A stretch of 64,000 bases of DNA from Minisyncoccota bacterium (GCA_018063165.1 JAGOQU010000001.1:130330-194329); one strand, 5' to 3'; shown: positions 3,680 to 47,408, counted from the stretch's first letter. Numbers and translations are program-made. Notes: generated by a model from the sequence alone, not told the origin.

Positions 3680-3760
3680 TAAGAGTAAAGGTTATTTCTT
3701 GCAAGATATTCTATAAAAGAGTATTCTAACATCATTAGATACATATAATATATAACTACT

Positions 3761-4534
3761 ATGGAAACATTACGGGAATTGTTTAAAAATAATATTGTTG
3801 CTTTTGGTGTTGTTATTAGTTTTGCTTGGGTGGTAAGTTCTTTTGTTCTTGCTTCAGGCCTTTCAGGTATTAATAAGAGAGACACAATCAGTGTTACAGG
3901 AACTGCAGAACGTGTTGTAGATAGTGATGCTGCTAAATGGACATTTTCTGTTACTAGAAATGCTACACCAGAAGAGTATCCTGCTATGTCAAAACAAATT
4001 AAGGTTGATCAAGTTGTTGTTGAGAAGTATCTTCTTTCTCAAGGCATAGAAGCTAAAGATATAACGTTACAACCAGTCACTTCTAGTGTTGTATGTCAAT
4101 CACAAAGTCAAGTTATGTATGATGGGCAAGGACGTCAACAGTGTTCTGGTTATTTTACATATAGTATTAAGCAAATAATCACTGTTGATTCTTTAGATGT
4201 AAAAAAAATATATGACCTTTCTCTTAATACAGAAAATATTTTAATGCAAAAAGGTGTTCAAATACAGAATGGTTCAGTTGATTTTTTCTACACAAAATTA
4301 GCTGATCTTCGGGTAGATCTTCTTTCTATGGCATCAAAAAATGCAAAAGAAAGAGCTGTTGCTATAGCAAAAAGTACAGGAGACTCTATTGGAGGTGTTA
4401 AAGATGCTTCTCAGGGAGTCTTTCAGGTTACGCAAAAGAATAGTACTGATGTAAGTGATTACGGTAGTTATGATACATCAACAATAGAGAAAAAAGTAAC
4501 TGCCATTGTACGTGCTAGTTTTGAAGTAAAATAG
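3761..4534 (+). CDS. SIMPL/DUF541-domain protein (YggE-like periplasmic protein)
   Basis: N-terminal TM anchor followed by ISVTGTAERVVDSDAAKWTFSV... and a C-terminal ...VTAIVRASFEVK. This is the typical DUF541 architecture. Confidence 0.55.
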   Translation: METLRELFKNNIVAFGVVISFAWVVSSFVLASGLSGINKRDTISVTGTAERVVDSDAAKWTFSVTRNATPEEYPAMSKQIKVDQVVVEKYLLSQGIEAKDITLQPVTSSVVCQSQSQVMYDGQGRQQCSGYFTYSIKQIITVDSLDVKKIYDLSLNTENILMQKGVQIQNGSVDFFYTKLADLRVDLLSMASKNAKERAVAIAKSTGDSIGGVKDASQGVFQVTQKNSTDVSDYGSYDTSTIEKKVTAIVRASFEVK

Positions 4535-18274: not shown

Positions 18275-19384
18275 ATGACACCTGTTAACAAAAAAACAAA
18301 ACTTCAAACAATAAAAAAGCCACTAGATTTATTTTCTGTACAGAAAAAAGAGGTAAAGAATAAGAATGCACTTAAAATGATTGATCTCTTTGCTGGCATT
18401 GGTGGCATACGACAGGGATTTGAAAGTGTTGGGTGTGAATCTGTTTTTTCATCAGAGTGGGATGCTCCCGCTCAAAAAACTTATGCTGAAAATTTTGGAG
18501 ATATTCCGTATGGTGATATAACTCAAATTGATCCTGAACAAATTCCTTCCTTTGATATTCTGTTGGCTGGATTCCCATGTCAGCCATTTTCTCAGGCAGG
18601 AAAAAAGCTTGGTTTAGCTGATACACGTGGAACACTTTTCTTTGATATAGCTAAGATAGTTAATCATCACAGACCAAGAGTTGTTTTTTTGGAGAATGTG
18701 AAGAGATTTAAAAGTCATGATGGTGGAAAAACATTTGAAACAATTAAATCAATTTTAGAGGATCTTGGTTATCAGATTCATGCTAAAGTTCTGAACGCAA
18801 GGGATTTTGGAGTTCCTCAAAACAGAGAAAGAATTTATATTATTGGATTCCTTGGAGAAGTTGATTTTTCATTTCCAGAACCATTAGGAAAAAAGACTAG
18901 ACTTGGTGATATTTTAGAAAAAAATGTAGATTCTAAGTACACTCTTTCAGACAAGCTTTGGGCAGGACACCAAAGAAGAAAGAAAGAGCACGCCGCTAAG
19001 GGGTATGGTTTTGGGTATTCTATGTTTAACGAGAAGTCAGAATATACTAGTACAATTTCTGCGCGATACTATAAAGATGGTTCGGAAATATTAATTGAGC
19101 AAGAAGGTAAAAACCCAAGAAAGCTCACACCTCGTGAAGCTGCAAGACTGCAAGGTTTTCCTGATACTTATAAACTTCCAGTAAGTGATATGCAAGTATA
19201 TAAACAGTTTGGTAATAGTGTAGCTGTGCCAGTTATTAAAGCACTTGCTAAAGAAATTGATAAAGCTCTTAAAACTTTGAAACAGAAGAAAACTTCAGAT
19301 CTTAGTAATATTGATATTGATAAAATTAAAGCGGACAGTGTTAAAACTGTTATGTTGAATCTTAAAAAAGAAGCTACTGTTTAG
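18275..19384 (+). CDS. DNA (cytosine-5)-methyltransferase
   Basis: Motif I DLFAGIGG, motif IV GFPCQPFSQAG, motif VI FLENVKRF, and the C-terminal QFGNSVAVPV. Confidence 0.95.
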   Translation: MTPVNKKTKLQTIKKPLDLFSVQKKEVKNKNALKMIDLFAGIGGIRQGFESVGCESVFSSEWDAPAQKTYAENFGDIPYGDITQIDPEQIPSFDILLAGFPCQPFSQAGKKLGLADTRGTLFFDIAKIVNHHRPRVVFLENVKRFKSHDGGKTFETIKSILEDLGYQIHAKVLNARDFGVPQNRERIYIIGFLGEVDFSFPEPLGKKTRLGDILEKNVDSKYTLSDKLWAGHQRRKKEHAAKGYGFGYSMFNEKSEYTSTISARYYKDGSEILIEQEGKNPRKLTPREAARLQGFPDTYKLPVSDMQVYKQFGNSVAVPVIKALAKEIDKALKTLKQKKTSDLSNIDIDKIKADSVKTVMLNLKKEATV

Positions 19385-20151
19385 TGGGTATCTGTAATTA
19401 GTGATTCCCAATAGTTATTATTAGCTCTCCATTGTGAATATGGTCTTGGGTTACCTGCATACATTCCACTATCAAAAAAAATTAAACCTTTCTTTACTCC
19501 CGTTATCCAAGTTTTAAAATTTATTGGATCACCAAAGACAATACTTGTGTAAACACCTTCAGAATTTTTGTTGCATTTAAACCAGCCAAGTTTATTAAAC
19601 TTCTTCTCAACTCTTTTCTTCATTAACTCAGCACTCCAGCTTGCAATTATCAATCTATTTTGTTGAAGATCTTTAGGAACTATATTATTTTTATCTAGTC
19701 TTTTGTCTTTTTCAAATGAATATATCGTGAGAATGTTATCGTATTCATCAATTTCAAGTTTCTGTCCAAAATCATTATATGTATTAATCTTAGGACAAGG
19801 TTTTCCAGACCAAGAGTAACGGTTTTCTTTTTCTACGTTAGGTGCTCCAAAAAATTGAAGAAACTGATCTCTCTTTAAAATATTTACTTTCTTTTTGAAC
19901 AATGAGTAGTCAGGCGACCAGTCACCAAAAGTGGTTTTACTTGCTGTGTGGTTTTTCATTTCAAAACCATCTATATCAGGCGCATTATTTCCATTATGTG
20001 CAATTCCCATTTGTGTTTCAAGCCAATGACCATCTTTACCGTCATGTCCAGCATTTGAAGAAGTGGTGTCAGATTTTTTACCTCTAACTTTTTTATCAAA
20101 TAGAGTGATTATCTTTCTTTTTGTTTCCTCACGATTTTGAGTATTTGTCAT
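19381..20151 (-). CDS. Putative type II restriction endonuclease, MutH/Sau3AI-like PD-(D/E)xK fold
   Basis: Convergent with the methylase and overlapping its stop by 4 bp. The segment HWLETQMGIAHNGNNAPDIDGFEMKNHT resembles the MutH catalytic region [26 protein letters not shown] (PD...ExK). Confidence 0.5.
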   Translation of the reverse strand: MTNTQNREETKRKIITLFDKKVRGKKSDTTSSNAGHDGKDGHWLETQMGIAHNGNNAPDIDGFEMKNHTASKTTFGDWSPDYSLFKKKVNILKRDQFLQFFGAPNVEKENRYSWSGKPCPKINTYNDFGQKLEIDEYDNILTIYSFEKDKRLDKNNIVPKDLQQNRLIIASWSAELMKKRVEKKFNKLGWFKCNKNSEGVYTSIVFGDPINFKTWITGVKKGLIFFDSGMYAGNPRPYSQWRANNNYWESLITDTH

Positions 20152-28691: not shown

Positions 28692-28695
28692 CAAT

Positions 28696-28721
28696 AAAAA
28701 CCGCTCATATGAGCGGTTTTT
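28696..28721 (+). terminator. Rho-independent terminator
   Basis: CCGCTCATATGAGCGG followed by TTTTT. Confidence 0.75.
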
Positions 28722-28813
28722 AGTTTCTTTATATATAACACTTTTTGCATTTTTGTCAATAAAATGATAGTCTAGTATCATTCGTTAGTTCTTTTATTAT
28801 GTGAAAGGGTATT

Positions 28814-29334: not shown

Positions 29335-29961
29335 TTAATGTCTTCTTTCAAGTGCGCTTTTAAAGGTTTCTCTATCAACGTATTCGAGTTCAAGACCAGA
29401 AGAAAGCCCTCGTGCCAAATGTGACAGGGTAACGGTCTCTATACCTACTATTTGTTTGATGGTTTTTTCTACGTATTCTGTAGTAACATCCCCATAGTCT
29501 GTTACAGGAAGAGCAAAAATGACTTCTGTTATCGTTTTATTTGTTATGTCTGTATGTATGCGTGATGTCAGTTCTCGTATGCGTATAATTTCAGAAGGTT
29601 TTTCTGTAAGAGGTGGAACAAGACCTCCTAAAATAAAATATAGACCATTGTATGAGCCAGCTTTTTCTATGGCATCTAAGTCAAGTTCTTTTTCTAGTAT
29701 CATTAATTGTGTAATATCACGAGATTCTGATGAACATATTGAACATAAAGGTTTTGGAAGTTCTGTATTTTTATCACCAAAAAAGCGATAACACTTTTCA
29801 CATTGTCTTCCGGTAAACTTTAATTCTTCAAGAGTTTTAATAAGTTGCTCTTTATAGTGTGAGTGTTCACGTAGAAGAAAGTATACAAAACGTTTAGCTT
29901 GCTTTGGTCCTATTCCAGGGAAACGCATAAAAAGCTCAGTGAGACGATCTGTAGGATTCAT
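29335..29961 (-). CDS. recR: Recombination protein RecR
   Basis: HhH motif RFPGIGPKQAKRF, zinc finger CEKCYRFFGD...CSICS, and a Toprim domain. Confidence 0.92.
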   Translation of the reverse strand: MNPTDRLTELFMRFPGIGPKQAKRFVYFLLREHSHYKEQLIKTLEELKFTGRQCEKCYRFFGDKNTELPKPLCSICSSESRDITQLMILEKELDLDAIEKAGSYNGLYFILGGLVPPLTEKPSEIIRIRELTSRIHTDITNKTITEVIFALPVTDYGDVTTEYVEKTIKQIVGIETVTLSHLARGLSSGLELEYVDRETFKSALERRH

Positions 29962-30105
29962 AGAGTTAATTTGTTAAGTATAACAAATTAACAGTTCTTA
30001 GCTATTAGCTGATAGTTTTTAGCTAAATACATACTGACGACATAGAAATAAGTAAAAAAAACAGAAAAACAAAAACCGCAACGCAGTTTTTGCGTGGCGG
30101 TTGGT

Positions 30106-30726
30106 TTAGTGAACGCAATACTCACGAATGAGTTCCTTACGTGTAGATGTTTTAAGACCACGAAGAGGAATCTTGCGAATCAGTTCTTGTTCTTCGCAAA
30201 ACTTTCTTTTATTCTTTGCTTGTTCTTCAGCAAGATCTGTAAGATAGGATTCTCGCCAGTAATCGAAATCAGTATACCCTTGAAGTTGACAGTCATCATC
30301 TAAAGGTATAAAAGTATCAAATTCATATGAATATTGACCAGGGAACAATCTGTCATCTGAGTCATATCTGTACAAATCCCAGTTTGGGTCTCCTGCTTCA
30401 AACCATAGATCCTCCATTCTTTCGAGTTTGTGGAACAGCTTTGCTTCGTTATTGTTAAGCTCACGCCATCCGCGTTCCATAGCAAGACAAAGGTAATCGT
30501 CGGTCATCCGATCGAATTTACTATCTCTTATCTCCATCATCCAGTCAAGGAAACGGTCATCTTCACCGAAATCTTCAAAGTCAAAGATGTGAAAGTGCGA
30601 TTCAAGTTCTTGACTTAAATGGTAATTAAATTCCATCCGGTCGATTTCTTCATTGCTTGGTGCCGTAAGGTACGGCAGGGTTGCGACGAATTTTTTCGAA
30701 CCAGAAACTTTACGATTTTTAGCCAT
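30106..30726 (-). CDS. Highly acidic Trp/Asp/Glu-rich hypothetical protein (cassette 1)
   Basis: 206 aa from the internal Met MAKNRKVSG, with a GGAGA RBS. Composition and local GC content are atypical for the window. Confidence 0.55.
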   Translation of the reverse strand: MAKNRKVSGSKKFVATLPYLTAPSNEEIDRMEFNYHLSQELESHFHIFDFEDFGEDDRFLDWMMEIRDSKFDRMTDDYLCLAMERGWRELNNNEAKLFHKLERMEDLWFEAGDPNWDLYRYDSDDRLFPGQYSYEFDTFIPLDDDCQLQGYTDFDYWRESYLTDLAEEQAKNKRKFCEEQELIRKIPLRGLKTSTRKELIREYCVH

Positions 30727-30839
30727 TTTTATCTCCAAAAGTTGTTGAAAAGTACAGAAATCTTTAGTGAAATGAACAATATTCAATTCAAAAAGCAGAA
30801 TTATAGTATACACTAAATATAGAAAAAGTCAAGTAAAAT
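30727..30839 (-). repeat. Copy 1 of a 113-bp promoter-plus-5'-leader module
   Basis: Near-identical to 31387-31498 (3-4 mismatches). On the minus strand it reads TTGACT, 16 nt, TATACT, then about 75 nt of leader, GGAGATAAAA and the ATG. Confidence 0.7.
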
Positions 30840-30906
30840 TGAATTGAAAAGTATTATTAAATATGAAAAACAAAAACCGCTAATGCAGTTTTTGTCTAGC
30901 GGTCTA

Positions 30907-31386
30907 TCAGTATGCAGTTTGTAGCGGTCCATCTTGCCAACATGTTTCCTCGAGATATTCTTTCTCAGGTGCAGATATTGGATCAGGATTCAGCCATGAA
31001 TAGCGAGCGGGTATCACAGCCCAGGTTAATCTTGGTCGTGAGTCCCACCAGTCTACAGCAAAACGAAGATCAGTCTTTTCCTGTAAAACTTGACGTAGTT
31101 TAGCACCAAGATATAACTCAGGGGATTCAGTCTGGTCTTTTAGGTGTAGTGCAACAAGCAGTGATCCGCTTGTCTTACATGTTTTGCATTCACGGTAGTT
31201 TTCAAGGTATCCATTACCGTTACAGTCAATACATCTATCGTAATATAGTTCCCATGCAACCTCATCATCATGATCATCAAAATAATCATCATACAGACCA
31301 TCGATACCCCAAGGGCCCATTACAACAAGTGCGGTCAAGGTCTCAGAAACTTCACGTGAACTTGGTTTAAAGCGGTTTGCTTTCAT
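30907..31386 (-). CDS. Hypothetical acidic protein with a CxxC...CxxC zinc ribbon (cassette 2)
   Basis: 159 aa containing CIDCNGNGYLENYRECKTCKTSG. It is W/D-rich. Confidence 0.55.
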   Translation of the reverse strand: MKANRFKPSSREVSETLTALVVMGPWGIDGLYDDYFDDHDDEVAWELYYDRCIDCNGNGYLENYRECKTCKTSGSLLVALHLKDQTESPELYLGAKLRQVLQEKTDLRFAVDWWDSRPRLTWAVIPARYSWLNPDPISAPEKEYLEETCWQDGPLQTAY

Positions 31387-31498
31387 TTTATCTCCAAAAG
31401 TTGTTTAAAAGTACAGAAATCTTTAGTGAAATGAACAAAATTCAATTCAAAAAGCAGAATTATATTATACACTAAATATAGAAAAAGTCAAGTAAAAT
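31387..31498 (-). repeat. Copy 2 of the 113-bp promoter-plus-leader module
   Basis: See copy 1. The 3' flanks of the two ORFs (30066-30102 and 30866-30903) are also related hairpin terminators. Confidence 0.7.
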
Positions 31499-31816
31499 AG
31501 TAAAAAAGTCTTTTAAAATAATGAAAACAAAGCAATAAAGAAGATTTTGCTTGAGTTGCTTTATATTGTATTTCACAGACTCAAGTTTTTCATTTTAAAA
31601 GTTTCTCGGAGACTGACGAGTCGAGAGGGAGCGAATTGCGAAGCCGAGCAATTACGCGACTTTTAAAATGGAAAACTAAAAAGAAAACAAGAATTGATGT
31701 AAGGAAGAGTTTGATATTTAAACAGAGAAAATTTCTATATTTCAAAAAATAAGAATATAAAATATTTTATACAGAATACGGACCTGGATTCCATATCAAG
31801 CCTGGAATGATAAATA

Positions 31817-31856
31817 CAAAGAGCGAAACCGAAGGTTTCGCTCTTTGTATTTTTAG
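31817..31856 (-). terminator. Terminator downstream of dnaB
   Basis: CAAAGAGCGAAACCgaaGGTTTCGCTCTTTG with T-rich flanks. Confidence 0.6.
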
Positions 31857-31913
31857 TTACAGTCTACCCAGTAGATAATTCTACTGAATCACATGCTAAT
31901 CACTAAAAGCTCT

Positions 31914-33401
31914 TTAGAAGTCCTGTATATTTACACTAACATTCGGCATAGAAAAATCTCCAAACTCTGATTTCTCAACAGAAACGAACGAGGTCTTCTT
32001 GTCATCAAAGTATAGTTCTACCATACCAGTTGGTCCATTACGGTGTTTTTCAATTAAAATTTCTACAATGTTTTTACGTTCAGTTCCTTCAGTTCCATAT
32101 TTGTCTTCACGATGTATGAACATAACCACGTCCGCATCTTGCTCGATAGATCCAGAGTCACGAAGGTCAGAGAGTCTTGGTTTTCCTCCACGAGATTCAA
32201 CGGCACGAGATAACTGTGACAGTGCTATAACCGGAGCGTTAAATTCCTTTGCGAGCGCTTTAAGAGAGCGAGAAATTTCTGTTACTTGATTCACCATGTT
32301 GTCATAGCTTTTAGACGTTCCCATAAGCTGGAGGTAGTCCACGATAATAAGTCCAATAGGTTTATCTGTATTGAGTCGACGAAGTGTACTACGCATGTTA
32401 AGAATAGTATTAGCAGCTTTGTCATCTACAAAGATTGGTGCACGCATGAGTTCGTGCATACCTTGTTGAAGACGTTCGAACTCTTCATCGAGTGAAAGTT
32501 TTGCTGTACGAAGTTTCCAGCTATCAACTTGTGATTGAGCTGAGAGCATACGATCAACAAGTTGTTCTTTACTCATTTCCAGAGAAAAAATTGCAACAGG
32601 TATACCATGTTTTACTGCAGCATTACGAGCAAAATCTAGTGCTAACGATGTCTTTCCAACAGAAGGTCGTGCAGCTAGAATAATAAGATCTGATGGTTGA
32701 AAACCAGATAGTTTGTGGTCAAGGTCTTTGAAACCAGAAGGTGTTCCACGCATACCACCTTCTTTTTCTGACATTTTTTCAATACGGGACCATGTTTCAT
32801 CAATAAGTTCATTAAAGCCTATTAGTCTATCAGATGTACCTCCTTTTGTTGTAATCTCGTATATACTTTTTTCTGATTCTTCTAAAATTGATTCAAGAGA
32901 GTCTGTTTCTTCATAAGCAATTTCACCTATGTGTGTTGTTGCTTCTATGAGTTTACGAAGTAGCTCTTTTTTTCTAACTATCTGTGCATAGTATTTTACA
33001 TTAGATGCAGACCCAACAAGACCAAGAAGATCTGAAAGGTATGAAGCACCACCTATTTGATCAAATTCTTTTCGTTCACGAAGCGCAGCACTTACTGTAA
33101 GTATATCTACAGGTTCTTTTCTGTTTACAAGGTCTTCTATAACTTCGTAAATGATTTGATGCTTTGCTGCATAGAAACTTTGAGAATTAACAACATCTGC
33201 TATGTCAAACATAGCATCAGAAGAAAGAAGAAGTGAGCCTAGTAACGCTTTTTCTGATTCTAAATCTTGTGGAGGTATACGTGGACCACGGAGAGGGTCT
33301 TCTGTAGGTTTACGATCGTAACTTTCATAGTTTCCACCATATTTACTTCTTCCTTTATATTTTTGTTTTGAAGATGATGATAATTGGTCAAGTGGAATCA
33401 T
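31914..33401 (-). CDS. dnaB: Replicative DNA helicase DnaB
   Basis: N-terminal DnaB domain (ALLGSLLLSSDAM), Walker A ARPSVGKTSLAL, and the C-terminal RecA-like fold. Confidence 0.95.
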   Translation of the reverse strand: MIPLDQLSSSSKQKYKGRSKYGGNYESYDRKPTEDPLRGPRIPPQDLESEKALLGSLLLSSDAMFDIADVVNSQSFYAAKHQIIYEVIEDLVNRKEPVDILTVSAALRERKEFDQIGGASYLSDLLGLVGSASNVKYYAQIVRKKELLRKLIEATTHIGEIAYEETDSLESILEESEKSIYEITTKGGTSDRLIGFNELIDETWSRIEKMSEKEGGMRGTPSGFKDLDHKLSGFQPSDLIILAARPSVGKTSLALDFARNAAVKHGIPVAIFSLEMSKEQLVDRMLSAQSQVDSWKLRTAKLSLDEEFERLQQGMHELMRAPIFVDDKAANTILNMRSTLRRLNTDKPIGLIIVDYLQLMGTSKSYDNMVNQVTEISRSLKALAKEFNAPVIALSQLSRAVESRGGKPRLSDLRDSGSIEQDADVVMFIHREDKYGTEGTERKNIVEILIEKHRNGPTGMVELYFDDKKTSFVSVEKSEFGDFSMPNVSVNIQDF

Positions 33402-36485: not shown

Positions 36486-37643
36486 TTACGTATTTTGATA
36501 CACAGCTAAAAGATTGGATTTTGTTTTAAGTGCATAAGGAGCTATTCTATGCTTGCCATAGGCAGCAAAGATAGACTTTGACATGTTTTTTTGTATCCAT
36601 GCTTTTGTCATATTTTTTGCTGGCTCTGGCGCATGATGTGCTGCTGCTATATACATCACTATCTCGTCTTGGTAGTTACCGTGCTTCTCTTTTAAGATTG
36701 TTACACCTTTAGGAGAAAGCGAGGCGACAAGGCGGGAGAGATTATGTACCGCAAAATAAAATGCGGCGGTATGATGCTCGTGTCCCTTTAATTTCACGAC
36801 TGAATCAGCTATCTTGTCACCACCTTCTTTTACAAAAGCGTTGACAATAGATGCTCCATCAGTAGATTGATTATCTTTTCTAACAGCATACATAGTAAAC
36901 TGATAGAATCCGATCGAAGTGAGGCCATCACCGAGTGCTGGAATGTTATAAACAAATTCAGCGCCTGCGTTCTGCAGAAGCACATCCATATACTCGACGT
37001 TCAGTCTTCCTTCGGAAGAAGGGAGGAGTTCTGTCATGCCATAGGCAATCAAATCTTTTCCTTGTAGATTAGAAATGACTGCTTTGTTGACCTGACATTT
37101 TTCTTGTGTAAGTTTGTAATGCTTACACAATTTATTCCAATCAAGAGATTTTTTTCCAGAAGCAACTTTTTGGTTTGCGACTGAAACAAAATTCTTGAAG
37201 CTCATCTTTTTTCTATCCGAGATGAGGTAGTTCTCGTAAAGTTCTGGTACCTTACTTAGTACTGTTTCTGTACTCTCCTTACACACTCCTTTTTTGTTAC
37301 ACTTTTCAAAGTTTATTTTTTGTTCAAATAACTTTGAAAGATTTTCATCGAAAGAAATATCTGTATGAGGTGGTACAGACCCATTAGGAAGACCAAGGTA
37401 TTTTGCATACAGGTCTCCTAGTTTTCTGCCAGCAAGTGGACCAAGGTTGATAGTTTTTTTATCACCAGCCTTTTCCTCTTTTGCAGTCTTCAGAGCTTCC
37501 AGAGAGGCATTTTTACGATCCTCACGGGTTGTAGGTATTACTGCAATAGATTTCTCAATTACTTTCTTTTCGTATGCTTGTTGTTCTTTTTCAGAACAGC
37601 CAAACATTCCAATAATAGAAAGCAACATAATGAAAAAATTCAT
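36486..37643 (-). CDS. Hypothetical lipoprotein
   Basis: Lipobox LLSIIGMFGCS. 385 aa. No catalytic motif recognised with confidence. Confidence 0.5.
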   Translation of the reverse strand: MNFFIMLLSIIGMFGCSEKEQQAYEKKVIEKSIAVIPTTREDRKNASLEALKTAKEEKAGDKKTINLGPLAGRKLGDLYAKYLGLPNGSVPPHTDISFDENLSKLFEQKINFEKCNKKGVCKESTETVLSKVPELYENYLISDRKKMSFKNFVSVANQKVASGKKSLDWNKLCKHYKLTQEKCQVNKAVISNLQGKDLIAYGMTELLPSSEGRLNVEYMDVLLQNAGAEFVYNIPALGDGLTSIGFYQFTMYAVRKDNQSTDGASIVNAFVKEGGDKIADSVVKLKGHEHHTAAFYFAVHNLSRLVASLSPKGVTILKEKHGNYQDEIVMYIAAAHHAPEPAKNMTKAWIQKNMSKSIFAAYGKHRIAPYALKTKSNLLAVYQNT

Positions 37644-46949: not shown

Positions 46950-47408
46950 ATGAATGATTCTTTAAAGAATAATGCTTGTTTCCCGGTTTTTTTTGACCGT
47001 GCACAATTGGTTAAACAAAATCAACTTGGTGAGAAATACAATGCTGCTTTTATGTATGCAAAAAGTATTTTTTTAAAAGCGGGTGCTATTTGTGATTATG
47101 AAAAATATTTTTTATCTCCACAAATTGTTGAAAGGTTTTTTATTAATGATAAAAAAGTGTTAGGGTATCAATGTGTTTTTTTTGATAAATACACAGAACT
47201 CAGTTCTTTGGAAAGAGAAACATTGCAAGGATTAACTTTTAAGGAGCTTGTTGATTCTTTAGATAGACAAGTTCTTGTAAAAATTGGTCTTGTTTGGGAA
47301 AAAGGTCCAGATAAAGCTCCCACATTGACACTTTGTTCTAACACTATGGAAATCAAAGATTTAGATTTTATGAAATTTATGCTTAAACCTTTTGATTTTT
47401 ATATGTAA
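46950..47408 (+). CDS. Hypothetical protein
   Basis: 152 aa with a strong AAGGAGA RBS. Aromatic-rich. No motif recognised. Confidence 0.5.
   Translation: MNDSLKNNACFPVFFDRAQLVKQNQLGEKYNAAFMYAKSIFLKAGAICDYEKYFLSPQIVERFFINDKKVLGYQCVFFDKYTELSSLERETLQGLTFKELVDSLDRQVLVKIGLVWEKGPDKAPTLTLCSNTMEIKDLDFMKFMLKPFDFYM

Follow-up and report, generated by a model that had tools for sequence, protein, structure and literature searches.

The stretch analysed here, a 64-kb window (the window in what follows) from a metagenome-assembled genome (MAG) of Candidatus Pacebacteria, which belongs to the candidate phyla radiation (CPR, or Patescibacteria), holds between dnaB and recR two small genes, open reading frames (ORFs) A and B, each of which follows a nearly identical promoter and leader module and precedes a terminator-like hairpin. 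The minus strand carries, in order, dnaB, a terminator, an AT-rich stretch, an RNA-like element, a hairpin with a T-tract, module copy 2, ORF B and its terminator, and then module copy 1, ORF A, a further terminator, the recR promoter region and recR. In CPR bacteria a function is known for only a minority of genes, and the control of gene expression is almost uncharted. The locus described here is a concrete and comparatively validated regulatory unit, in which promoter, 5' leader and terminator are held nearly constant while the cargo changes. We found no description of this dnaB–recR locus in the literature searched.

The repeat reported in an earlier note on this DNA was confirmed as a direct repeat of 113 nt with 97% identity (30727-30839 against 31386-31498). 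Gapped homology reaches further upstream (30727-30874 against 31386-31531; 148 nt, 90.5%). Exactly two copies are present in the window, the next best match being a partial one of 28 nt at 47109-47136. The strong sigma70 promoters claimed for the two copies are borne out as predictions: TTGACT-16-TATAAT (11/12 matches) and TTGACT-16-TATACT (10/12) rank, read on the minus strand, as the top sigma70-like sites of the surrounding 10 kb, and each is followed downstream by GGAGAT, a run of A and the ATG. The relatedness of the 3' flanks of A and B was likewise confirmed. Both are hairpins of the form ACCGC...GCGGTTTTTGTTTTT followed by a T-run, and both score as intrinsic terminators. The terminator hairpins are stable (-7.5 to -14.4 kcal/mol) and show compensatory changes, for example from GCT/AGC to ACT/AGT. 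Between L21 and the next gene, at 28695-28722, lies a perfect bidirectional terminator, AAAAACCGCTCATATGAGCGGTTTTT, whose ACCGC/GCGGT stem ends are those of the islet terminators, so this stem motif is not exclusive to the islet.

One element of the earlier description had to be given up. A stretch near 31520 had been taken for a degenerate third 3' flank, and hence for a trace of a once-longer array, but it is in fact the 3' half and T-tract of the hairpin that closes the upstream RNA-like element. This hairpin (31523-31560) precedes the first module also in the single-unit loci L001 and L004 (related contigs are labelled L001 to L148 here, homologous proteins P0027 and P0035, and the window WIN). 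Given its presence in these single-unit relatives, it is no evidence for a lost third cassette, and the longer array, which rested on it, falls as well. The features of the locus are collected in Table 1.

Table 1. Features of the dnaB–recR slot in minus-strand order (SD, Shine-Dalgarno sequence)
Feature	Coordinates	Strand	Basis
dnaB, replicative helicase; upstream boundary of variable slot	31914..33401	-	Pfam DnaB and DnaB_C, E = 3e-99; syntenic in relatives with contigs long enough to include dnaB
dnaB terminator: strong hairpin, T-runs on both strands	31799..31865	.	inverted repeat I1, 32-nt arms, 84% complementary
Candidate structured RNA, three stems, closing stem ~18-19 bp	31582..31679	-	RNAalifold compensatory changes, fold z-scores
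Hairpin and T-tract closing the upstream RNA-like element	31523..31560	-	predicted stem conserved in WIN, L001, L004, L034
Module copy 2: -35 at 31486-31491, -10 at 31464-31469, ~75-nt leader	31387..31498	-	sequence
Module copy 2 leader: hairpin, GAUUUCU box, SD GGAG	hairpin ~31421-31454; SD 31392-31395	-	sequence
ORF B, 159 aa, pI 4.58	30907..31386	-	orphan family, 8 clusters
Predicted intrinsic terminator of B: ACCGCTAGACAAAAACTGCATTAGCGG then TTTTTGTTTTT	30862..30903	-	hairpin -7.5 kcal/mol
Module copy 1: -35 at 30827-30832, -10 at 30805-30810	30727..30839	-	sequence
Module copy 1 leader: hairpin, box, SD	hairpin 30762-30795; box 30754-30762; SD 30733-30736	-	sequence
ORF A, 206 aa, pI 4.71	30106..30726	-	orphan family, 19 members
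Predicted intrinsic terminator of A: ACCGCCACGCAAAAACTGCGTTGCGG then TTTTTGTTTTT	30060..30101	-	hairpin -13.3 kcal/mol
recR; downstream boundary of variable slot	29335..29961	-	Pfam RecR_HhH and Toprim_4; syntenic in relatives

The slot in related genomes

The exact A and B proteins are on record from Candidatus Pacebacteria MAGs, and our comparison covered 13 distinct loci, that is, every A or B homolog with retrievable context. All fetched homologs adjoin dnaB and/or recR wherever the contig extends to these genes, and the surrounding synteny (cysS, dnaB, slot, recR, L21, rmuC) is conserved, with 89-97% DnaB and 80-93% RecR protein identity across the loci. The module precedes every fetched homolog, and a terminator of the ACCGC..GCGGTTTTT family follows each of them except B of L037, where the contig ends, and the genes of L039 and L040, where an ORF intervenes. 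An exact terminator 32-mer was found behind different cargo in six loci.

At least eight gene arrangements occur between dnaB and recR among the 13 loci. The slot holds B and then A in the window, and A and then B in L037; A only in L001 and L004; B only in L034, L035 and L148; B and a small ORF in L040; A and a small ORF in L010; a 121-aa ORF and then A in L038; A and a remnant of B in L039; B, a 107-aa membrane ORF and a truncated A in L006; and A, a 107-aa ORF, an opposite-strand 601-aa ORF, a duplicated dnaB 3' fragment and a 135-aa ORF in L033. The description of conserved flanks around variable cargo thus extends well beyond the window, since at one fixed chromosomal position the same module and terminator family surround A, B or the two together in whichever order. 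The 107-aa predicted membrane protein is conserved between L006 (5602-5925) and L033 (1146-1469), with a different promoter of its own and a terminator of the same family. No family match was obtained for these other occupants of the islet (107, 135, 601 and 121 aa). The neighbours called within 5-10 kb are cysS, dnaB, recR, L21, RmuC, YqeY, a PDZ protease and orphans, and in none of the 13 loci did they include an integrase, transposase, recombinase or phage gene.

Several of the arrangements carry marks of how they may have arisen. In L039 a 53-aa ORF with its own SD (755-916) lies directly behind A, with neither a terminator nor a module between them, and corresponds to the last 35 residues of a protein of family B (63% identity to P0035, E = 1e-16); it is either the footprint of a deletion within an A-B array or a functional mini-protein. 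P0027 is an apparent chimera, in which an A-type N-terminus is joined to the 'MAEDAHxDPELY' tail of short B variants (E = 4e-5). A second apparent chimera, the 121-aa ORF of L038 (408-773), bears the A-type C-terminal motif LxLKGL...R..I.RDYC (E = 4e-4) behind an N-terminus that is of another kind and contains CxxC. In L033 a duplicated fragment for the last 22 residues of DnaB (3727-3792) lies inside the islet beside the opposite-strand 601-aa orphan gene, and is followed by a dnaB-type terminator and then by a promoter with a different leader that would drive the 135-aa orphan. The duplicated fragment suggests insertion through homology at the 3' end of dnaB. The B remnant of L039, P0027, the L038 ORF and the dnaB fragment of L033 all read as direct footprints of recombination.

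Further copies of the module were sought with a promoter-core pattern in genome contigs, with strict and tolerant patterns in metagenome contigs and with the tolerant pattern in viral contigs. The promoter-core pattern gave 20 matches in genome contigs, none with the full module; they were generic near-consensus AT-rich promoters from unrelated phyla. The strict pattern gave 0 matches in metagenome contigs and, as L004 fits this pattern, that collection does not contain the sample of L004. The tolerant gapped pattern gave 97 matches in metagenome contigs and 10 in viral ones, and none of them fits the module's profile with an E under 0.08. A promoter-like sequence, tacttgacaatatRtatatttagtgtataatata, is found almost unchanged in two contigs of Saccharibacteria (L025:2160-2186 and L030:2247-2273), where it stands in front of short ORFs that, by eye, look unrelated and GC-rich. 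The likeness may be a matter of chance, or it may reflect a shared-promoter arrangement of similar kind in another CPR class.

Constraint on the flanks and the nature of the leader

The flanks change far more slowly than would be expected of idle spacer DNA. In a comparison of the window with three relatives, nucleotide identity is 83-85% in the module, 80-88% in the dnaB coding sequence, 63-75% in the A coding sequence and 57-72% in the spacer between terminator and recR, while synonymous sites differ by 45-70% (dS, the synonymous divergence, from 0.7 to above 1.9). That the module differs by only about 15-17% against these 45-70% indicates strong purifying selection on it. This non-coding sequence evolves several-fold more slowly than neutral sites, and the conservation ascribed to the leader is thus real. 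Since the leader is under selection, it is, as judged from its rate of change, certainly functional. Within the module mean pairwise identity rises from 0.49 in the 35 nt upstream of the -35 box to 0.89 in the -35 box, 0.83 in the promoter spacer and 0.92 in the -10 box, and is 0.73 in the hairpin and 0.76 in the box after it, the promoter core being the best-conserved part. By this evidence from sequence comparison, the shared flanks are shown to be functional regulatory DNA and RNA under purifying selection, not the ends of a mobile element.

Copies of the module group by the lineage of the genome and not by the cargo behind them. The modules of A in L010 and of B in L034 are 87% identical despite their different cargo, and the module of L148, which carries the most divergent B (33% protein identity to B of the window), is nearly the same as that of A in L033, with lineage-specific variants common to both; behind B of L148 stands the exact canonical 32-nt terminator. 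Paired copies within one genome are 93-97% identical in the window, 77% in L006 and 71% in L037. The far greater likeness of the window's copies points to a recent gene conversion or duplication, confined to the flanks, in the lineage of the window.

A few nucleotides past the transcription start predicted from the -10 box, the leader contains an inverted repeat, CUUU-UGAnnUGA...UCAnnUCA-nn-AAAG, which is followed by a box, GAUUUYY, complementary to the SD region. One reading of these features is that the leader is a structured cis-regulatory RNA, for instance a thermometer-like element that sequesters the SD or an element that binds a factor, with the structure itself under selection. About 14 of 16 copies form the hairpin in their minimum-energy fold, and 88% of the cells in the stem are paired, against 36-52% when the partners are slid by 1-3 columns. 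Most of the pairs are invariant. Two variable positions pair in 8-9 of 15 sequences, with 3 and 5 pair types, and are unpaired in the other 6-7; double-change cells number 7 against 3.2 in shuffles, a value reached by 1 of 500 shuffles, in a test that ignores relatedness. By hand count, 7 cells hold G.U and 2 hold A.C. The box variants also track the variants of the SD (AUUUC with GAGAU, AUUUUC with GAGAAU), and cognate duplexes are predicted to be more stable than non-cognate ones (-4.17 against -3.80 kcal/mol; permutation p ~0.03, ignoring relatedness, against 0.12 for a control segment). The slow evolution of the leader relative to synonymous sites agrees with this reading as well. However, the RNAalifold consensus reaches only -1.41 kcal/mol, with 0 compensatory pairs among those predicted, the z-scores of single sequences are for the most part not significant (-0.2 to -0.4 in copy 1, -0.7 in copy 2), and the leader has no Rfam match at the gathering score or at E up to 5. 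Selection for a regulatory structure is a stronger claim than the account of the locus given below, with which it is compatible, and we advance it tentatively, as something that may hold but that we would not presume.

Lying a few nucleotides at most from the predicted 5' end, the leader hairpin resembles 5' stabiliser hairpins and fourU thermometers in its position, and, as in SD-sequestering leaders of the fourU type, a box rich in U is the complement of GGAG(A) if U.G pairs are counted beside U-A pairs. Unlike in the latter, the pairing is weak (a predicted duplex of about -4 kcal/mol closing a loop of ~16-23 nt), and the leader belongs to no Rfam family. A 5' stabiliser hairpin combined with a weak anti-SD box is the most economical model of the leader, and its structural part is modestly supported by the pairing statistics.

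Alternatively, the repeat could act as DNA. TGAnnTGA...TCAnnTCA just downstream of the promoter might be the operator of a dimeric repressor, with the promoter spacer forming part of the protein site and the whole serving as a transcriptional switch. The invariant parts of the stem would then be palindromic half-sites, the unusually high conservation of the promoter spacer would be accounted for, and a palindrome would stay symmetric as the specificity of its regulator drifts. Yet the called neighbours with Pfam hits include no transcription-factor gene (several neighbours are unannotated), the arms differ between close relatives, and the excess of G.T over A.C 'pairs' in the same hand count suggests selection on one strand only. 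We doubt that the repeat is an operator, while keeping this reading as a live alternative. A LexA or Cheo-box reading of the hairpin was also considered and dropped, its arms not being conserved, by eye, between relatives.

The proteins A and B

ORFs A and B encode proteins of 206 and 159 aa, as had been described, and the claim that the two are unrelated to each other also proved correct (BLASTP E = 1.8; hhalign probability 0.1%). The remark that their composition stands apart also holds, and it does so in pI, charge per residue, GC content and GC content at third codon positions (GC3). Among the 64 ORFs of the window they are the sole ones with a pI below 5 (4.71 and 4.58), and no other ORF is as negatively charged per residue or as rich in GC (0.40 and 0.43; median 0.33). 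Their GC3 values of 0.36 and 0.30 rank first and third of 39 selected ORFs, whose median is 0.19. Acidic they are; 'highly acidic', as they had been called, is too strong for a net charge of about -0.07 to -0.08 per residue.

Other genes of the window with high GC3 are an orphan, TerC and a restriction endonuclease. The orphan, a basic 385-aa ORF without a Pfam match (36486-37643, minus strand), has the second-highest GC3 of the 39 (0.32), and the endonuclease gene, of the LlaMI/MvaI-BcnI type (19381-20151, minus strand), adjoins a 369-aa ORF (18275-19384, plus strand) that might encode its methyltransferase. As accessory genes such as the endonuclease share the feature, GC3 alone is no sign of high expression, and we dropped its use as such a mark.

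Family A comprises 13 clusters in a word-seeded search and 19 members in an exhaustive profile search of 1.84 billion representatives; family B comprises 8 clusters. Proteins of family A share an N-terminal motif, KKFVATLPYLxAPSDEEIDQME, and a C-terminal one, CPEQAIVREIPLRGLKxSVRKALIREYC, joined by a variable, indel-rich middle that is acidic and aromatic. Those of family B share an N-terminal region and one DnaJ-type CxxCxGxG...CxxC zinc knuckle, formed by the motifs CIDCNGNG and CKTCKTSG, and have alternative C-termini. PF00684 (DnaJ_CXXCXGXG) matches 6 of 7 B members, with a best E of 3.7e-4 and 16 bits against a gathering cut-off of 32.7 bits; by these scores B has a DnaJ-like knuckle yet is no member of the DnaJ family. 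Searches of Pfam, NCBIfam, PHROGs, PADLOC and PDB sequences with B gave only sub-threshold zinc-knuckle matches (DnaJ, anti-TRAP, LIM). For family A no match was found in Pfam, NCBIfam, PHROGs or PADLOC, nor, with the family profile, among PDB sequences at E up to 10. One of the 13 A members matches the N-terminal domain of the T4 Gp59 helicase loader weakly (E = 0.01), which is intriguing beside dnaB; with one member and such an E-value, we treat the match as chance. AlphaFold2 models built on the family alignments have low confidence, with a predicted local distance difference test score (pLDDT) of 52.8 and a predicted template modelling score (pTM) of 0.20 for A, and values of 45.2 and 0.29 for B. 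The acidic region of A, being rich in indels and predicted with low confidence, is probably flexible.

Ratios of nonsynonymous to synonymous divergence (dN/dS) are 0.25-0.40 for A and 0.15-0.18 for B, compared with 0.03-0.06 for dnaB and recR and 0.11-0.14 for cysS. By these ratios A and B are real, moderately constrained and fast-evolving genes. Their dS is similar to that of the neighbouring genes, which indicates that they were inherited vertically together with these. Along A the ratio is about uniform, at 0.2-0.35 throughout, and positive selection on its middle part was rejected accordingly.

Neither protein has a signal peptide or a lipobox, and both are presumably cytoplasmic. As a guess of low confidence, they might be abundant protein-binding modulators or inhibitors of an immunity, anti-defence or adaptor type; B would then act by way of the DnaJ-type zinc knuckle, and A by way of the two conserved motifs at its ends, which an acidic flexible linker joins.

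The possibility that the two are DNA-mimic or anti-restriction proteins, which the earlier note had raised, deserves a separate comment. Like Ocr and ArdA, A and B are small and acidic and stand under a strong predicted promoter; unlike theirs, the context of A and B is chromosomal and vertically inherited. The charge density of Ocr is much higher than that of A and B. Neither A nor B has a sequence match to any solved structure, LIM and DnaJ zinc-finger noise for B apart; the structures of Ocr and ArdA are presumably in the PDB, although their presence in the copy searched was not confirmed. As far as these comparisons of sequence go, such a function is neither supported nor excluded.

Origin of the slot and a neighbouring candidate RNA

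We consider it fairly likely that A and B are two independent single-gene expression units in a small hypervariable dnaB–recR islet of one Candidatus Pacebacteria clade. As predicted, each unit consists of a near-consensus sigma70-type promoter, a leader of about 75 nt with a 5' hairpin, a box and a strong GGAG, an orphan acidic ORF and a Rho-independent terminator. These flanks would give any gene in the slot the same strong, co-regulated expression. At the same time the repeated flanks, together with the long homology arms provided by dnaB and recR, would serve as substrates of ordinary homologous recombination, which would have homogenised the two copies in the window, by gene conversion or a recent duplication, and would add, delete, reorder and recombine cargo among relatives, probably after uptake of DNA. 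Natural competence has been shown in Saccharibacteria, another CPR class (PMC10633639, PMC10187176), and by analogy uptake followed by recombination is plausible in CPR bacteria. The slot itself is real and recombination-prone, and neither an integron nor a prophage remnant nor an error of assembly accounts for it. Repeated functional regulatory sequences thus appear sufficient for cassette-like variation without a recombinase. In practical terms, the module offers itself as a subject for studies of regulation and, in the genetics that is emerging for CPR bacteria, as a natural expression cassette, and the slot flags a few fast-evolving, lineage-restricted proteins at one exchangeable position, where factors of host interaction or conflict are to be expected.

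Several points weigh against this account or limit its reach. Promoter, transcription start and terminators are sequence predictions, and the module count covers 64 kb of this genome. The leader hairpin is thermodynamically unremarkable, being no more stable than shuffled sequence in most copies and consisting mostly of invariant pairs, and the anti-SD signal is weak. High GC3 is common to accessory genes in the window, the restriction endonuclease among them. What our guess at protein function draws on is how the proteins are composed, how fast they evolve and a zinc-knuckle match below the threshold; the AlphaFold2 models are uninformative. Homologous recombination and DNA uptake are deduced from patterns, and the competence cited above was shown for Saccharibacteria, not Paceibacteria.

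A more far-reaching version can also be envisaged, in which this clade keeps a recombinase-free 'plug-and-play' slot. The selected promoter-leader and terminator would act as homology arms, through which fast-evolving orphan effector genes are swapped, stacked, reordered and made chimeric by transformation and RecA-dependent recombination; the leader would be a new cis-regulatory RNA coupling the occupants to one signal, and each occupant would be a factor of anti-defence, immunity or host interaction in an epibiotic lifestyle. Taken as a whole we regard this as speculative, and would sooner expect some part of it to fail.

The closest situation that we found described is the purF-radC island of Clostridia CAG-217, which carries AcrIIA22 and is a short hypervariable island of small ORFs whose turnover was attributed to homologous recombination (PMC8545432). 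As at dnaB–recR, a fixed slot between conserved genes holds small, mostly uncharacterised ORFs in many arrangements among close relatives, without an integrase, transposase or recombinase. In contrast, the dnaB–recR units each carry the same conserved promoter-leader and terminator, the slot is without detected phage homologs and lies in a CPR host, and its anchor genes are two alternative orphan families and not one conserved gene.

The likeness to that phage-fed island in its high turnover could also be taken to mean that the islet is the remnant of a phage or another mobile element, with A and B as morons for anti-restriction or DNA-mimic proteins. Each unit indeed has the layout of a moron, an ORF with its own strong predicted promoter and Rho-independent terminator between unrelated genes, and this part of the moron reading in the earlier note stands. 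The cargo is also the most acidic and most GC-rich of the window, with atypical GC3, and a LlaMI-type restriction endonuclease is encoded elsewhere in the window. A phage origin, however, is not supported. The neighbours are housekeeping genes, neither an integrase nor a phage gene was found in any locus, and no homolog of A or B was found in IMG/VR or GenBank phages; as CPR phages are poorly sampled, this last result is only a weak negative. The family searches give no better support, since A has no PHROG or PADLOC family and no match among PDB sequences at E up to 10, and the PHROG matches of B stay at the level of the zinc knuckle. Moreover, the proteins carry a modest density of charge, A has the same dS as its neighbours, as vertical inheritance would have it, and, unlike morons, the units share one regulatory module. 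We consider a phage or mobile-element remnant unlikely.

It is very unlikely, too, that A and B go back, as ancient paralogs, to the tandem duplication of one entire unit, in which the coding parts diverged beyond recognition and the flanks were conserved. Apart from the flanks being the same, a short basic stretch opens both proteins (MAKNRK and MKANRFK), and both families have a TL(P/T)xL motif at residues 16-20. Yet the profile comparison given above finds no relationship, the zinc knuckle of B has no counterpart in A, the families are already distinct in every genome examined, and other B proteins start with MTATRFEP, which makes the N-terminal likeness specific to the window.

That the locus is an integron-like array, in which site-specific cassettes recombine at attC-like 3' hairpins, is essentially refuted, and we give this reading hardly any credence. 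Related imperfect palindromes do lie behind each ORF, the cargo does vary in presence, absence and order, and the identical 32-mer does recur behind different cargo. Nevertheless, there is neither an IntI nor an attC at the slot, no integrase or recombinase lies within 5-10 kb in any locus, and the units, unlike the promoterless cassettes of integrons, each have their own promoter. A T-run comes after the GC stem of each hairpin, the compensatory changes are of the terminator type, no GTTRRRY core is seen by eye, and the exchange is most simply explained by homologous and not by site-specific recombination. The cassette array of integron type that had been proposed for the locus is hence abandoned. 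That the repeat is an artefact of assembly, as two highly identical copies in a MAG might suggest, has next to no probability, since the two copies differ by substitutions and one indel, have unique junctions with two different genes, and have counterparts in the two-module arrangements of other samples that were assembled independently (L006-L009, four runs; L037; five sequencing runs in all).

Another point of comparison is provided by the vlp, vsp and vsa lipoprotein families of mollicutes, in which several genes have a conserved promoter and 5' region but differing coding bodies, and in which repeats promote recombination. Small-genome bacteria with a common 5' expression region in front of differing coding bodies are found in both cases. 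Unlike those lipoproteins, A and B are without a signal peptide or lipobox, a homopolymeric phase-variation tract or an invertase, and their conserved region stops at the start codon.

With the leader as the first, the locus holds a second candidate RNA element, which lies between dnaB and the first module and spans ~100-150 nt (31582-31679 together with the hairpin 31523-31560). In RNAalifold, compensatory changes were found in 13 of 44 pairs and 13 of 34 pairs (4-5 sequences), and the fold z-scores are -3.85 for the minus and -5.06 for the plus strand. The element has no Rfam match. Orthologs lie in L001 (4707-4804), L004 (4690-4811), L034 (3661-3808) and L037 (1-65); beyond the known copies, none was found in the 587 kb of sequence scanned. 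A hydrophobic 51-aa ORF that overlaps the element was considered as a type I toxin and rejected, its reading frame not being conserved. From its pattern of changes the element behaves like a structured RNA, and it adjoins the two units but may not belong to them. A further copy is present in a different gene context on the minus strand of the Saccharibacteria contig L025 (5183-5278). Common to Paceibacteria and Saccharibacteria and absent from Rfam, this candidate is an independent lead. As to its strand, the original four sequences hold 3 G.U and 3 A.C cells, and two G.U pairs in the L025 copy, by hand count, favour the minus strand.

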